From Escherichia phage EPFV3-03/2025, in the sequence record PV435126.1: a DNA stretch of 64,000 bases; one strand, 5' to 3'. The notes below the pieces were generated by a model. The model was not told the origin of the DNA and made no database searches. It worked only from the letters and a program-made list of their open reading frames with translations. The stretch's first letter is position 1. The number at the start of each line of letters is the position of its first letter. This document shows, piece by piece, positions 4,845 to 50,176 of this stretch. The position numbers were made by a program, and so were the translations under genes.

Positions 4845-5096
4845 TTAACGTTCTACAAAAATACCATTCAGTTCGATAACCAGGAATTTCTGATCTTCAC
4901 TATCGTCACGTGCTAGCACCTCACAGACGTAACGGTCATCTCCGTCATCATCACAGTCAAATACAAGGCTGAGGACTTTATCATGATAAATCTTCGACAC
5001 TACTGCCTCGTAAGTATTGCCGATTGTGAATCCAAGATAATCCCCGATGCATTTGACAACAACATGGTCGCCAGCATTTAAGTCAATCTTCGTCAT
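4845..5096 (-). CDS. hypothetical small acidic protein
   Basis: ORF 4845..5162 trimmed to the internal start MTKIDL, which has an aaggag RBS. Confidence 0.55.
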   Translation of the reverse strand: MTKIDLNAGDHVVVKCIGDYLGFTIGNTYEAVVSKIYHDKVLSLVFDCDDDGDDRYVCEVLARDDSEDQKFLVIELNGIFVER

Positions 5097-12887: not shown

Positions 12888-13418
12888 CTACAGATGGTTG
12901 CTTATGGTGTCAAGAAAATTATCCCGTTCTTTCTTGGAGTTTTCACGGGTGTAGCTGAAAAACATATCTAGAATAACCTTATTGATATATTCCAGCTCCT
13001 CTGTGTTCAGGTACTTAGCAGGATCTACAATGACATCCCAAGTCTCATACAGACCGCACTCATGATAACCCCAACGCTGCTCAATTGTCAAGCTGAGCGG
13101 CAAATCTTTACCGTCACAAACAACCTTCCATCTACAAATGCTGGTATCTGGGCACACCTGTGTACGGTATACCTGTACAAAATCCAATCTGAATTTGAGG
13201 TACTCGTCATACAATTTAAGCACAAAGCTCTCGATTTGTGGAGACACTTTTGCAGCAAACTGTGCGTATTTATACTTGCACTGGATGATCTTTCTGCGTT
13301 TTGCAGTTAAATTTTTTGCAGCCAGTTGTTCTTCAGTGTATCTCCACCGATCAACAAACGCAACAGGGTCTTTGTCCCCATAAAGGTCTTCCCAGTTAAT
13401 CAGAAGCATACCTGTCAC
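12888..13418 (-). CDS. hypothetical protein
   Basis: 176-aa ORF. Confidence 0.55.
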   Translation of the reverse strand: MTGMLLINWEDLYGDKDPVAFVDRWRYTEEQLAAKNLTAKRRKIIQCKYKYAQFAAKVSPQIESFVLKLYDEYLKFRLDFVQVYRTQVCPDTSICRWKVVCDGKDLPLSLTIEQRWGYHECGLYETWDVIVDPAKYLNTEELEYINKVILDMFFSYTRENSKKERDNFLDTISNHL

Positions 13419-14359: not shown

Positions 14360-14644
14360 CTACCAGGTTACTGTCAAGTAGGCAACCGTGTTATTTTTCT
14401 CCGGAGAGATGCCAACAACATCCACCTGCAGACCTCCTGCCCTCAAATCCCCAACGATGTGTGGGAAGTAGTCTGAGAGGTGCGATGGGAGATTTATCGA
14501 AAATCCGCATCCCAGAAAGCCTGCTAACGCTTTATTTTGTATCTCCCCTACAATCGCATCATAAATGGAGTTAAGCTCGTCAGGGAGCGTTACAGGGCGT
14601 TTTAGCGCTAACTGGTGCAACTTGTCCTTAGCACTCATTTTCAT
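14360..14644 (-). CDS. hypothetical protein
   Basis: ORF 14360..14713 trimmed to internal start MKMSAKDK, which abuts the upstream stop. Confidence 0.45.
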   Translation of the reverse strand: MKMSAKDKLHQLALKRPVTLPDELNSIYDAIVGEIQNKALAGFLGCGFSINLPSHLSDYFPHIVGDLRAGGLQVDVVGISPEKNNTVAYLTVTW

Positions 14645-15174
14645 TTCAGGTCTACCTCTGGAGGTGCCAACCACATAAATGGCGGCAGGTCTAAACGGTT
14701 CTTCTTGTCCCACACAAAATATGCATATGCTTGCCCGTCAGTTCTGCCATTTGATTGGAATGATGGACGCTTAGATATTGTGATCACAGTGGTAGGTGCA
14801 TTATCAAGCCACCATTCAAATCTGGCTTTGCTTTCCAGAAAATTAAGACGCAAAAGCATAATAACTACGTCAGCATCTTTCAACGCCTTGTCTACAAACT
14901 CACGAGCCAGGCTGTACGGTGGGTTGGTGATAATACAGTCAACATGGTTGTATTCTGTATTCAGATAGTCAACACCTTCTTGGATTTCTCCCCATGCAGA
15001 TCCTAACGGCATACGGGAGTAGAACACACCTGAGGCGCTATTTCTGCAAGGCTCTAGGTAGGTCCAGTCTTCTGGGAACGGAATAAGGTCATACAGCCCT
15101 TCTGCACACCACTCCGGTGTCACATACTCGTCGTAAGCGTTACGTTGTTCATCAGGTTTTCTAGCACAAGTCAT
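14641..15174 (-). CDS. DNA methyltransferase (amino-methyltransferase, NPPY motif)
   Basis: 177 aa containing IITNPPYS, the motif IV of N6-adenine/N4-cytosine methyltransferases. Confidence 0.7.
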   Translation of the reverse strand: MTCARKPDEQRNAYDEYVTPEWCAEGLYDLIPFPEDWTYLEPCRNSASGVFYSRMPLGSAWGEIQEGVDYLNTEYNHVDCIITNPPYSLAREFVDKALKDADVVIMLLRLNFLESKARFEWWLDNAPTTVITISKRPSFQSNGRTDGQAYAYFVWDKKNRLDLPPFMWLAPPEVDLK

Positions 15175-15190
15175 GCAAATCTCCAGATCA

Positions 15191-15214
15191 TAAAAGCCCT
15201 CCGAAGAGGGCTTT
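15191..15214 (-). terminator. hairpin terminator (minus strand)
   Basis: gccctc/gagggc stem with cgaa loop flanked by A/T runs, downstream of the gene ending at 15226. Confidence 0.5.
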
Positions 15215-28759: not shown

Positions 28760-29218
28760 TTAGAAGTTTGTTTTTACACGTCCCTTTTCATCTACTTCGT
28801 TGTTAGCTAAAAGCGTTACAAAGTCTGTAAAACGAACATGAAGAACTCTTTTCTTATCCAGGTATCCTAAAGCCACACCTGAGAAATTTACCATCAAAGG
28901 TGCTAAAGAAGCTCTAGCACTGAAATGCTGCTGTTCCACTCTTCCAACACCCTTAGTATAAGAAGGGTTGAGATTGTAAGTTCTGAATCCAAGTTTTGTT
29001 GGGGCTTTAGAATTAAAAACAACTTTATAACGTTTCTTACTCAACTTATGTTCCAGAATAAGCATACCCTTTTCACCACGGATAAGCTGAAAATCTGTAA
29101 AATGCTCTTTTAAGACAAAAGGTAGTGCCAGCCCCATAGCCTGTCCCCTTTGCACGGCTGTTTCACCAAAAGCCTTTGCATCAGTAAGCTCTTTAGTCAA
29201 GTCTATACTTTTGATCAT
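28760..29218 (-). CDS. hypothetical protein
   Basis: 152-aa ORF. Confidence 0.5.
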   Translation of the reverse strand: MIKSIDLTKELTDAKAFGETAVQRGQAMGLALPFVLKEHFTDFQLIRGEKGMLILEHKLSKKRYKVVFNSKAPTKLGFRTYNLNPSYTKGVGRVEQQHFSARASLAPLMVNFSGVALGYLDKKRVLHVRFTDFVTLLANNEVDEKGRVKTNF

Positions 29219-29999
29219 ACCTGGTCTCCAAAATGTATTGTAGTTCTTTCTTGCCTATACTCTTCATTCCAGCAGTCTTACCTGCTTCTTCTTGAAAAGA
29301 AGAATAGCATTCAGCAAACACTCTGTCAACACCCTCAACTAAAGATTTTATGAAATATGTTGATTCTTCAGATTTTGGGTCATCATCTCCCAATACTTTT
29401 CCAGCATTATACCCAACACGTCTTATGCAGAAGTCGTAGTCATCCGGTGTGCTAAAAGAAAATAGCTTATTCTCTCCAATCTCTACAGGATCCCTATTGC
29501 ACACCTTTTTCTCCCAAATTTGGAAAACACATGGCACGTCATAAGGTTTGTCGTTAAGTAAAAACGAGTTCTTGGGGCACCTTTCGCTGTAGATAAGGTG
29601 CATTGACATGTCCAACTTGTTTGCAAAAAATATTTTTTCAAATGTCCGTGGCAAGATGAAGGCTATAGCCCCGCCAGGCTCTAGCAATGATGCACAGTGG
29701 TTAAAGAACTTGCAAGCTAAAGACGAATTTTTGCCGAATGGAGGATTACCTATGAAGACATCAGCCTTAGGGTACACCTCTAAGAAGTTTGCCTTAATAC
29801 ACGGTGTTGGGCCTTCAAATTCAGGATCTGGTACCAAATCGTACGACAGTATCTCTGAAAATAGTTTTGAAAAAGAACCCTTTCCAGCAGAAGGCTCAAC
29901 GTATGCACAATTCCCATACCTAGCTTTTACTTTACCAACAAGATATTCTGCATACTCAGGGTCTGTGTAATATTTGTCGTTGGACTCTTTCTTGCTCAA
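29193..29999 (-). CDS. DNA methyltransferase (NPPF motif)
   Basis: 268 aa containing VFIGNPPFGK, amino-methyltransferase motif IV. Confidence 0.65.
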   Translation of the reverse strand: MSKKESNDKYYTDPEYAEYLVGKVKARYGNCAYVEPSAGKGSFSKLFSEILSYDLVPDPEFEGPTPCIKANFLEVYPKADVFIGNPPFGKNSSLACKFFNHCASLLEPGGAIAFILPRTFEKIFFANKLDMSMHLIYSERCPKNSFLLNDKPYDVPCVFQIWEKKVCNRDPVEIGENKLFSFSTPDDYDFCIRRVGYNAGKVLGDDDPKSEESTYFIKSLVEGVDRVFAECYSSFQEEAGKTAGMKSIGKKELQYILETRYDQKYRLD

Positions 30000-30045
30000 G
30001 GTGCCTCCAAAATGAAAAGGGGAGGCGCAAGCCTCCCTCTACTTG

Positions 30046-31029
30046 TCAGATTATCTGAATCAGGGTGTTTTTCATCTCTTCTCGGGTACGGATGTTGTTA
30101 CGATCACGAACAACAGATCCACAACCTTCGCAGCGGTAGGTTTTAAATGCACTCAGTTGAGTATACGCCAAAGCCTCTTCCTCGTGAAGGTGTTCTCCAC
30201 CACAACGTGGGCAACGAACTTTTGACTCCTCATCTTGGTAGTACAACGACATGTTGGGGTGCTGCTTAGCAAACGGACGCGCCAGCAAATACAGACCTTC
30301 CAGAGACAAGATGTCCCCAACATTATACTCCCGCATCTGTTTAAACGCCTCAAGATCACCATGAACACACTTGATCCACATTTCAAATGTGTGGTCAATT
30401 AGTTTCTGTCGGGCCAGCTGGAAGTATTTACATGCATACTCTAACGTGTTTGCATTCAAACGGAATGCCTTTTTAATCATCTTGAGGGTGTCAACCTCTT
30501 TGTATGGGCTTGTTGGCGGCAAACCGTGAAATGCAAATCGTTGGTTGGCCCACCCACAGTCAAAACCAGAGTTGTGTGCTACTGCGACATCACATTTATC
30601 CAGATAATACCACAAATCTTGAATCAGCTCAAGATCGTTGTGGATATCCTCGCCCCACATTTTGTAATCAGGAAGAGCACAGTCAACCACACTGGGGCTG
30701 TCTAACCATTTACCTGCGAAAGTTAGCATATAGGGCATAATTTCAATACCGCAGGTTTGAATGTTGGTCTTATAATGCCCAAAGAACCAGCCGTTTGTTG
30801 GGGATGTCTCTGTATCATACACCCAAACTTTAGCACCTTTGTGTTCTTCAAGGAAGCGCTCCGTTGCCTCTCCTACAATCTCTGACATATTCTCTTGTGC
30901 ACGTTTAAGCTGTAGCCGGATCCAGCTCTCACGTGACTCACGACCTAGAAATTCACGAGCAATTTGTCTATTGGTGTATCCTTGTTGCTTTAGTGTTAAA
31001 ATTTGCTCAAGAGTTAACTTTGTCATCAT
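30046..31029 (-). CDS. DEDD-type 3'-5' exonuclease with N-terminal HTH and C-terminal zinc ribbon
   Basis: 327 aa; exo motifs VYDTETS, AHNSGFD, YNVGDI; N-terminal LEQILTLKQQGYTNRQIA; C-terminal CPRCGG..CEGCG. Confidence 0.6.
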   Translation of the reverse strand: MMTKLTLEQILTLKQQGYTNRQIAREFLGRESRESWIRLQLKRAQENMSEIVGEATERFLEEHKGAKVWVYDTETSPTNGWFFGHYKTNIQTCGIEIMPYMLTFAGKWLDSPSVVDCALPDYKMWGEDIHNDLELIQDLWYYLDKCDVAVAHNSGFDCGWANQRFAFHGLPPTSPYKEVDTLKMIKKAFRLNANTLEYACKYFQLARQKLIDHTFEMWIKCVHGDLEAFKQMREYNVGDILSLEGLYLLARPFAKQHPNMSLYYQDEESKVRCPRCGGEHLHEEEALAYTQLSAFKTYRCEGCGSVVRDRNNIRTREEMKNTLIQII

Positions 31030-48132: not shown

Positions 48133-49689
48133 GTGTCCAAAAAGAACCGCAGGAAACACAACGCCACAGCCAAAACTGTGAATAAATCTGGGAACGCAGG
48201 CGCACCAACTCATAATGTTCGTATGAGTGAGATCGGTTCTGGCGCACTTTCCCAAATTATGGCAGAATCACAATCTATGATGGTTGAGGAATTGCGTTGG
48301 CCTCAGCTGATTGCCACAGTGGAGACTATGAAATGTGATTCCACAGTTGCTACTGCCTTAGATACAAAATATGTTTTCATCACGAAAGCATTTAATGATT
48401 TTAAGATCCTTTATAATGTTAAAAGTGAAGACTCTAAGAAAGCTGCCGAGCTTATAGAGTATTCTTTGCGTAATTTGGCAAACCAGCAAACTCTTCGAGA
48501 TATTGCAAGAAGCGCAGCTACCTTTAACGAGTATGGTTTTTCACTGTTTGAGAAAGTATACCGCAGAGAGAAAGAAGGTAAATATGCCGGGATGCTTCTT
48601 ATTGATAAAATTGCATTCCGACCTCAGGCCAGTTTGTCCAGATCAGAGCCGTTTGTCTTTGACAAGAATAGTAGAACACTGACAGGTATTTATCAATCAC
48701 CTAATGCATTTCTAAACACGCAGAATGCACGCTGGGCTGGCCCTCTTGCTGCAATGCCTTCAAAAGGCTTTAATGAGCCTGAAATTTTCATCCCTGCCAA
48801 GAAGCTTATGCTCATGACCTTGTCAGGAACAGAGTCTAATCCTGCAGGTGTGTCACCGATGATAGGTTGCTACAGATCTTTCCGTGAGAAAGTTCTGATT
48901 GAAAACCTTGAGGTTGTTGGCTGCTCCAAAGACCTTGGTGGTGTGCTTGAGCTGAAAATTCCTTCCAATATTCTGAACAAGGCCAGCATTGACCCGAATT
49001 CAATGGAAGGGAGAATGGTTGCAGATCTTATGCTTGACGCAGCAAATGCCCACAGTGGGGAGCAAAGTTTCTTTATACTTCCGTCTGATAGAGATAAGTC
49101 TGGTAAAGAGCTTTACTCCATGACCCTGAAGGGGGTTGACGGCATGGGTAAGCAGTATTCCACTAAAGATTTGATTGATGCCCGTAAGAAGGCGATTCTT
49201 GACCGTTTCGGTGCTGGCTTTATTAACCTCGGTAACGATAACGTTGGATCCTTCTCTCTGTCTGAGTCAAAACAATCTATCCATGGTCATTTTGTTCAGC
49301 GTGATATAGATATTATCACTGAGGCCTTCAATAAAGATCTTATTCCACAGCTTCTGGCATTGAATGGTATCATCCTTGAAGATGATGATATGCCTAAACT
49401 GAAACCTGGTCTGATTGAAGAAGTGGACATGGAGAGCTTCTCCAAGTTTGTCCAGAGGATCGGTGCTGTAGGTTACTTGCCAAAAACTCCTGCAGTAATT
49501 AATAAGATTCTTGAAGTAGGCGGGTTTGATGAAAGATTTGACGAAGACATGGATCAGGAAGAGCTGATGAAGCTCTTGGGCCAGGATATCAGCAGGGCTG
49601 GTGATGGTATGGCTGCAGGATCCACTGGCAACGGCACTTCTAAGATGTCATCAACCAGAGATAATTCCATATCTAACATGGAAAATTAA
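48133..49689 (+). CDS. portal protein (by position and size)
   Basis: 518-aa ORF, GTG start, immediately after the large terminase. Confidence 0.6.
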   Translation: MSKKNRRKHNATAKTVNKSGNAGAPTHNVRMSEIGSGALSQIMAESQSMMVEELRWPQLIATVETMKCDSTVATALDTKYVFITKAFNDFKILYNVKSEDSKKAAELIEYSLRNLANQQTLRDIARSAATFNEYGFSLFEKVYRREKEGKYAGMLLIDKIAFRPQASLSRSEPFVFDKNSRTLTGIYQSPNAFLNTQNARWAGPLAAMPSKGFNEPEIFIPAKKLMLMTLSGTESNPAGVSPMIGCYRSFREKVLIENLEVVGCSKDLGGVLELKIPSNILNKASIDPNSMEGRMVADLMLDAANAHSGEQSFFILPSDRDKSGKELYSMTLKGVDGMGKQYSTKDLIDARKKAILDRFGAGFINLGNDNVGSFSLSESKQSIHGHFVQRDIDIITEAFNKDLIPQLLALNGIILEDDDMPKLKPGLIEEVDMESFSKFVQRIGAVGYLPKTPAVINKILEVGGFDERFDEDMDQEELMKLLGQDISRAGDGMAAGSTGNGTSKMSSTRDNSISNMEN

Positions 49690-49744: not shown

Positions 49745-50176
49745 ATGGGGAATAAGATGCCACAGGAAGAAATGATTTCCTACGAAATCATCTACGAACC
49801 TGACACTAAAGATGCTCACGGTGAGTGGATGAGTAAAGACACCATCAAAAAGGCTAAAGATAACTGGGACGCAGCATACGCCGCAGGCCTAGTTTCTGAA
49901 AACCTTTTTCACTTGACCTCTACAGATGCTTTCACCATTGAAAAGACGTGGATTCAAGAAGAGTTTGATGTTGTAGTGATTGGCACTGAGCAGGTCATCA
50001 AGGCTGGCTCTTGGGTTGCTAAAGTTAAATACAATAATCCTGAATTATGGGAAGCTAAGAAGGCTGGCATTGTTGGTGGCCTAAGCATTCAGGCAACAGG
50101 TAATGTTGATGAAGAGACTGGTGAAATTACCAACGTAAACTTCGGAATCAGTGTTGTAGAAGAGGGCAATGAATAA
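49745..50176 (+). CDS. hypothetical head-module protein
   Basis: ORF 49601..50176 trimmed to a start beyond the portal stop. Confidence 0.4.
   Translation: MGNKMPQEEMISYEIIYEPDTKDAHGEWMSKDTIKKAKDNWDAAYAAGLVSENLFHLTSTDAFTIEKTWIQEEFDVVVIGTEQVIKAGSWVAKVKYNNPELWEAKKAGIVGGLSIQATGNVDEETGEITNVNFGISVVEEGNE

Follow-up and report, generated by a model that had tools for sequence, protein, structure and literature searches.

Two stand-alone adenine methyltransferase genes of an rV5-like coliphage, one for GATC and one probably for GTAC

Results

Two methyltransferase genes in the genome of phage EPFV3-03/2025

The stretch of DNA analysed here (64,000 nucleotides, hereafter the window) comes from Escherichia phage EPFV3-03/2025 (PV435126.1) and is part of a Vequintavirus genome, that of an rV5-like E. 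coli myophage. It carries two genes for proteins of 268 and 177 amino acids (aa) with the tetrapeptides NPPF and NPPY, respectively, at the position of motif IV of amino-methyltransferases (Table 1). The two proteins are probably stand-alone DNA N6-adenine methyltransferases that mark replicating phage DNA at two different 4-bp palindromes, GATC (177-aa enzyme) and GTAC (268-aa enzyme). The initial annotation had placed both open reading frames (ORFs) and their tetrapeptides exactly as we found them, on the minus strand, and had called both products amino-methyltransferases, as the profile matches below support. The TTG start of the 268-aa gene is also the one given to its ortholog in the BASEL annotation of phage Bas51 (WalterGehring).

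Table 1. Positions of the two methyltransferase genes, their motifs and associated features. Positions are those of the window unless another record is named.
Feature	Position	Strand	Basis
268-aa methyltransferase gene, putative gamma-class (M.TaqI-like) Type II orphan	29193..29999	minus	ORF, TTG start
Motif X of the 268-aa enzyme (YYTDPEYAEYLV)	29937..29972	minus	aligned to M.TaqI residues 20-40
Motif I of the 268-aa enzyme, S-adenosylmethionine (SAM)-binding loop EPSAGKGSF (residues 35-43)	29871..29897	minus	aligned to M.TaqI 'EPACAHGPF'
Conserved D80 of the 268-aa enzyme, five residues upstream of the Asn of motif IV	29760..29762	minus	coordinates from sequence
Motif IV of the 268-aa enzyme, GNPPFG (residues 84-89), predicted catalytic	29733..29750 (NPPF, 29736..29747)	minus	aligned to M.TaqI GNPPYG
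Shine-Dalgarno sequence GGAGG, 4 nt before the TTG start of the 268-aa gene	30004..30008	minus	read from sequence
Terminator-like hairpin GGGAGGCTTGCGCCTCCC with T-run, between the DnaQ-like exonuclease gene and the 268-aa gene	30009..30037	minus	consensus scan and sequence
DnaQ-like 3'-5' exonuclease gene, upstream of the 268-aa gene	30046..31029	minus	
177-aa gene, minimal DNA N6-adenine methyltransferase	14641..15174	minus	ORF, ATG start; ortholog of bas51_0176
T83 and motif IV NPPY of the 177-aa enzyme (residues 83-87)	14914..14928 (NPPY, 14914..14925)	minus	sequence and Bas51 mutation data
Stretch with D69 (14968..14970) and D79 (14938..14940), sites of Bas51 retron-escape mutations D69G and D79G	14938..14970	minus	
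Degenerate motif I of the 177-aa enzyme, EPCRNSASG	15028..15054	minus	read from sequence
Hairpin AAGCCCTC-TTCG-GAGGGCTT with TTTAT, directly upstream of the GGAG Shine-Dalgarno sequence of the 177-aa gene	15190..15213	minus	read from sequence
Context gene, ortholog (91% identity) of the Bas51 'putative glycosidase', part of neither methylase	12888..13418	minus	
Type III Mod-like orphan gene, 441 aa	Bas51, L009:14456-15781		
'Dcm-like C5' gene, 254 aa	Bas51, L009:17042-17806		
Two further methyltransferase genes of the closest relative	PQ014731, 45344..46672 and 48161..48700		

The window has 241 ORFs of 60 aa or more, and in all of these the pattern [DNS]PP[YFW] occurs just twice, once in each of the two genes. 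With shuffled residues, about 0.47 occurrences would be expected, so the tetrapeptide by itself can only suggest a methyltransferase; the predicted identity of both proteins rests on profile matches rather than on the motif alone. The 268-aa protein matched the PADLOC Type II methyltransferase model PDLC03255 over its full length (E=1e-32) as well as PHROG 5172 (E=1e-124), and its N-terminal half matched PHROG 799 (E=1e-13), the family of a proven GATC DNA methylase. The 177-aa protein matched PHROG 799, 'DNA methyltransferase', at E=8e-67. Matches of the 268-aa protein to the Pfam families Eco57I (17.7 bits, cut-off 25.3) and MTS (15.8 bits, cut-off 23) fell below the cut-offs, and NCBIfam gave no match at its curated cut-offs.

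The motifs of the 268-aa protein follow one another in the linear order X, I, IV, with the recognition region C-terminal. Motif X includes YYTDP at residues 10-14. Across 68 homologs, D8 and T12 of motif X, residues E35, P36, G39 and F43 of motif I, and all six residues of GNPPFG are invariant. An AlphaFold2 model built on the alignment of these homologs (predicted local distance difference test, pLDDT, 93; predicted template modelling score, pTM, 0.89) shows a class I SAM-methyltransferase (Rossmann) fold. M.TaqI was its top match in a Foldseek search of the PDB, and gamma-class DNA methyltransferases superposed on it over 225-251 residues, the additional C-terminal part of about 100 aa included. 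A fold search of BFVD with the same model returned solely uncharacterised or DarB-like fusion proteins. The gene is under purifying selection, with a ratio of nonsynonymous to synonymous substitution rates (dN/dS) of about 0.10. By its profiles and modelled fold, the 268-aa protein is a gamma-class, M.TaqI-like Type II DNA N6-adenine methyltransferase. M.TaqI itself (N6-adenine, TCGA) is about 20% identical to it and differs in size (421 aa), in having a large C-terminal recognition domain where the phage protein has its compact C-terminal part, and in having a cognate nuclease, which the phage enzyme lacks; the targets of the two presumably differ.

The 177-aa enzyme and methylation of GATC

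The 177-aa protein is identical to bas51_0176 of Bas51 at 176 of 177 positions, V174A being the sole difference. The two genes have the same context, with a gene for a ClpP-like protease upstream and that for a 'glycosidase' downstream, and residues D69, D79 and T83 are conserved between them. Bas51 mutants that escaped retrons Asa1 and Squ1 were all mutated in an 'N6 adenine methyltransferase', and the engineered substitutions D69G, D79G and T83P each abolished retron defence (PMC12548924; 2025, PLoS Biology). In the same study, native nanopore sequencing of Bas51 detected N6-methyladenine (m6A) at GATC, which was lost with T83P, and the methyltransferase was toxic when expressed in E. coli. 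Of the four annotated methyltransferases of Bas51, bas51_0176 alone has D69, D79 and T83, so the published escape mutations belong to this protein. Because the window enzyme differs from it by one residue, it is almost certainly a GATC adenine methylase working like Dam.

In an infected cell, essentially every GATC of the replicating phage DNA would become Gm6ATC through the 177-aa enzyme, a level of methylation that host Dam does not reach during infection. Methylation by the same activity of GATC in retron msDNA (multicopy single-stranded DNA), or in DNA derived from the retron non-coding RNA, would then trigger retrons Asa1 and Squ1.

Motif IV of the 177-aa protein lies within TNPPYS (residues 83-88). 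The motif IV strand holds both T83 and D79, the latter being the conserved Asp located five positions ahead of the Asn. Judging from the 268-aa enzyme and M.TaqI, the motif order is probably X-I-IV. Its target and product (Gm6ATC) and its orphan status are the same as those of the alpha-class enzymes E. coli Dam and T4 Dam, as judged from the Bas51 ortholog; unlike them, it has the order X-I-IV, about 90 residues after NPPY and no separate target-recognition domain. Assignment to the Dam family proper (alpha-class, D12-class) was rejected, as there was no Pfam match at E<=1 and no inserted recognition domain. Scores against the phage 'Dam' families PF05869 (19.2 bits, cut-off 28.1) and TIGR01712, phage_N6A_met (16.1 bits, cut-off 97), were below the curated cut-offs, and the protein would be at most a distant relative of these families. 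The gene is under extreme constraint (dN/dS about 0.01, relative to three BASEL phages).

m6A at GATC and GTAC in Bas51 virion DNA

The Bas51 data hold a second mark. The published study mentions GTAC in its methods only and names no enzyme for it (PMC12548924). In its source data (Fig 4f, S4 Table), wild-type Bas51 has 1405 m6A calls at GATC, 509 at GTAC and 576 elsewhere; the corresponding numbers for the T83P mutant, from the same source data, are 35, 511 and 349. We counted 703 GATC sites (1406 adenines) and 258 GTAC sites (516 adenines) in the Bas51 genome. Against these site counts, both palindromes are essentially fully methylated on both strands in wild-type virion DNA, GTAC at 509-511 of its 516 adenines (about 99%). 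Since the GTAC calls did not fall in T83P, methylation of GTAC is independent of the 177-aa enzyme.

To our knowledge, the methylases of E. coli K-12 are Dam, Dcm, EcoKI and the silent YhdJ, none of which acts on GTAC; the GTAC mark must therefore be written by a phage enzyme. The 268-aa NPPF enzyme is its likely writer. As a second stand-alone SAM-dependent adenine methylase, it would methylate the phage's own replicating DNA at GTAC. This specific assignment of the GTm6AC mark, made from public nanopore data of a sister phage, is the new point of the present analysis. If true, it would provide the specificity of a methyltransferase family whose uncharacterised members in bacteria and phages number in the hundreds.

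The initial annotation had proposed that the two enzymes differ in specificity. This agrees with GATC, shown experimentally for the 176/177-identical ortholog and thus attributable to one enzyme of the pair, and with GTAC as an independent second m6A motif in Bas51.

Possible roles of the two marks

The purpose of both methylases would be to pre-empt GATC- and GTAC-specific restriction, and such an anti-restriction role is plausible. GATC methylation blocks enzymes of the MboI/DpnII type. KpnI sites contain GTAC, and enzymes of the Csp6I, PabI and HpyAXII types are further candidate targets of protection at GTAC. RsaI cuts unmethylated GTAC only (PMC2588503). GTAC is among the most depleted 4-bp palindromes of Bas51 (observed/expected 0.59, Markov model), and the window has 91 GTAC sites in 64 kb (observed/expected 0.38 with a zero-order and 0.46 with a Markov model); GATC is not depleted (ratio about 1.0, Markov model).

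Two points weigh against a protective role. The sole documented phenotype of the GATC enzyme is a liability for the phage, namely the triggering of retrons, and Vequintavirinae are, according to the BASEL study, exceptionally sensitive to the restriction-modification (R-M) systems tested. The second point leaves a narrow protective role uncontradicted, since none of those systems is known to target GATC or GTAC.

Both enzymes could be what they seem and yet have been selected for a role in phage DNA metabolism, by blocking MutH nicking of fast-replicating under-methylated DNA or by timing packaging, replication or late transcription. Dam methylation is known to time P1 packaging. We regard such a role as possible but rather doubtful. 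Host Dam evidently fails to maintain methylation of phage GATC (in T83P, 35 of 1406 adenines are methylated), Vequintavirinae stay highly sensitive to R-M systems, and the extraordinary conservation of the 177-aa gene noted above would suit an internal function. So would the mild laboratory cost of losing the methylase: on a host without retrons, the titre of methylase-null Bas51 is 2-3-fold below that of the wild type (source data, PMC12548924). The mutants are nevertheless viable, and their near-normal titres argue against an essential role in replication or packaging. The depletion of GTAC is what restriction pressure would be expected to produce, yet TA-containing palindromes are generally depleted. 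Phage orphan methylases are classically protective.

If the two enzymes do protect phage DNA, their targets matter in practice: orphan methylases decide which restriction systems a phage evades, and knowing them helps to predict which hosts can be infected by the rV5-like phages used for therapy and biocontrol. Such enzymes can also give the phage away. The GATC enzyme has been proven to trigger retrons, so that sensitivity to defences which sense methylation is to be expected wherever it is present.

The writer of the GTAC mark

The initial annotation counted two methylases. Two is correct for the window, but close relatives with complete genomes have another two methyltransferase genes in regions beyond it, one Type III Mod-like and the other 'Dcm-like' (Table 1). 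Bas51 thus has four methyltransferase genes, not two, and assignment of GTAC by elimination alone was rejected for this reason. The 254-aa 'Dcm-like C5' gene had no match in Pfam or PADLOC. The Mod-like protein matched PADLOC MTase_III at E=1.5e-205 and the Mod subunits of H. pylori and EcoP15I in the PDB at E=1e-28 and 2e-24.

The Mod-like bas51_0070 could be the writer of GTAC. The 268-aa NPPF enzyme would then have a different target, concealed within the m6A calls at other sites or consisting of N4-methylcytosine (m4C) sites, or else would show little activity on virion DNA. The gene has intact DPPF and FGGSGTT motifs with a full-length match to PF01555, and it is also present in the closest relative of the window. 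We nevertheless consider bas51_0070 an unlikely writer. It is a very close homolog of Type III Mods, and the Mods characterised so far target asymmetric sites of 4-6 bp, of which they methylate a single strand. It is also accessory, being present in 88 records at >=90% identity compared with about 120 for each of the two window methylase genes, and missing from about a quarter of records. GTAC, a palindrome methylated on both strands, suits the 268-aa enzyme better, because the characterised Mods behave otherwise and because M.HpyAXII is gamma-class like the NPPF enzyme.

M.HpyAXII of H. pylori is a proven GTm6AC enzyme, short, gamma-class and M.TaqI-like (PMC2588503), and its methyltransferase activity is often kept when the nuclease has been lost (PMC2588503). 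It has an M.TaqI-like N-terminal catalytic domain, as the 268-aa enzyme does. The two were likened by architecture and not by sequence: M.HpyAXII has 331 aa as against 268, and the catalytic Asn of its motif IV is at position 87 as against 85.

Several points tell against assigning GTAC to the 268-aa enzyme. The Mod-like protein is a third adenine methylase of the phage, and both strands would likewise be methylated if a Type III Mod had a palindrome as its target. The pairings of enzymes and motifs could be permuted, and a third motif may exist: EcoKI sites explain at most 26 of the 349 other m6A calls in T83P, leaving about 320 unexplained. Counts of classic Type III motifs in Bas51 singled out none that explains these calls.

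Published RsaI, Csp6I or KpnI digests of rV5-like DNA, or Sphingomonas methylomes, were sought in the literature, and nothing usable was found. Csp6I does cut DNA of VpaE1, a Felix O1-like phage, but the homolog of the 268-aa enzyme in this phage is only about 29% identical.

Bacterial relatives and the orphan status of the phage genes

Homologs of the 268-aa protein in Sphingomonadales and Rhodobacterales are 33-43% identical to it over the full length and share with it GNPPFG (motif IV) and VPCVFQ[IV]W. In 17 of 80 such loci, a putative Type II nuclease gene lies directly downstream. Its product of about 215 aa matches PADLOC REase_II (e.g. L063:4780-5424 and L051:4788-5441, together with 15 other loci) and has invariant HGK.FE, FDIE..TSIK and LNPKIDSK.QRRLQCS stretches. 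No match to this protein was found in Pfam or NCBIfam or, by sequence or by profile, in the PDB. It looks like an uncharacterised family of Type II restriction enzymes. R.HpyAXII, in contrast, is a PabI-type 'half-pipe' enzyme, whereas the partner of the 268-aa family has no sequence match to any PDB chain. As a second new point, the bacterial relatives of the 268-aa enzyme appear to form an uncharacterised Type II R-M family.

Further clues to specificity were sought in these relatives. GTAC was avoided to the same degree in bacterial loci with and without the partner nuclease (observed/expected 0.70 and 0.72), so palindrome avoidance gave no signal. The plasmid database had no match for the partner nuclease and a few 'hypothetical protein' matches for the methyltransferase. 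Metagenomic homologs on long contigs stood in jumbo-phage or conjugative-element contexts, with no annotated nuclease and no clue to specificity.

Both phage methylase genes are genuine orphans. The initial annotation had noted no restriction endonuclease gene next to either of them, and searches of the ten ORFs flanking both genes against PADLOC and Pfam gave no match to a restriction endonuclease. The EndoVII, RuvC-like and DnaQ-like genes near the methylases encode recombination or replication nucleases. In the bacterial Type II pairs the nuclease gene follows the methylase gene, whereas the phage copy is immediately followed by an unrelated 152-aa ORF; with no such partner beside it, the 268-aa gene is truly an orphan. 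That ORF was considered as a degraded nuclease and rejected, being unrelated to the bacterial partner nuclease.

It is very improbable that the 268-aa protein is instead an RNA m6A methyltransferase (METTL5/Ta1320-like, 'predicted RNA methylase') acting on ribosomal or transfer RNA: the family profile does weakly match Ta1320 and METTL5, a point against a DNA target, but RNA methyltransferases superpose on the model over the 140-150-residue Rossmann core only, the full-length Type II DNA methyltransferase match and the PHROG 799 match of the N-terminal half both point to DNA, and the nuclease pairs place the family in Type II R-M systems, which makes an RNA target unlikely. METTL5/Ta1320-type proteins are compact (about 200 aa) and stand outside R-M contexts; the 268-aa protein has the extra C-terminal part and nuclease-paired homologs, and was not placed among them.

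With somewhat more confidence than doubt, we favour a joint reading of the marks and the bacterial pairs. The NPPF protein would write GTm6AC and define a compact, GTAC-specific gamma-class family, previously uncharacterised. Its bacterial members, together with a nuclease family that has no relatives in Pfam, NCBIfam or the PDB, would constitute a new family of Type II R-M systems, of which phages captured the methylase alone. The roughly 320 unexplained m6A calls may also hide a third motif, that of the Mod-like orphan.

Overall, the interpretation given in the initial annotation, that of orphan anti-restriction methylases with different targets, is partly supported.

Upstream regions and neighbouring genes

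Each methylase gene is separated from the preceding gene by 46-51 bp, and in both cases a GC-rich hairpin with a T-run lies directly upstream, followed by the gene's own Shine-Dalgarno sequence (Table 1). The hairpin upstream of the 177-aa gene was not reported by the terminator consensus scan. From this arrangement, the methylases may be expressed by terminator read-through (attenuated) or from unrecognised phage promoters.

The DnaQ-like exonuclease encoded upstream of the 268-aa gene ends in a zinc-ribbon rich in Cys, which showed weak, sub-threshold matches to several zinc-ribbon families, including Lar restriction-alleviation.

Near the 177-aa gene, the ortholog of the Bas51 'putative glycosidase' has a Cys at the position equivalent to R87. 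The mutation R87* in the Bas51 protein helps escape from Retron-Asa1 (PMC12548924). The 'glycosidase' label found no match in Pfam or PADLOC; the protein belongs to PHROG 13467, function unknown.

Related genome records

The window shares 99.6% nucleotide identity with phage VB-EcoM-WM; for about 120 further rV5-like records, the figure is 94-98%. In many of these, both methylase genes are already labelled putative DNA (N6-adenine) methyltransferases. The pair is accordingly largely known: the two genes were annotated before, and the 177-aa enzyme was characterised in a near-identical phage.

In the closest relative (PQ014731.1, 103301..104078; L001:4194-4971), the 268-aa gene is annotated merely as a 136-aa fragment plus a spurious 'hypothetical protein' on the opposite strand. 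The full ORF is intact there (tblastn, 99.6% protein identity), and the fragment is an artefact of annotation owing to the TTG start.

Window position 1 corresponds to Bas51 position 93,539 and window position 50,000 to Bas51 position 5,080; the window therefore spans the point at which the Bas51 record arbitrarily begins and ends, in agreement with the description of the rV5 genome as circularly permuted.

Identity to this rV5-like coliphage is 94-95% for about 20 MG0656xx records ('Campylobacter phage', Campylobacter jejuni) and for CP057073.1 ('E. coli plasmid', 137,565 bp). Probably, the hosts were mislabelled or a phage genome was deposited as a plasmid.

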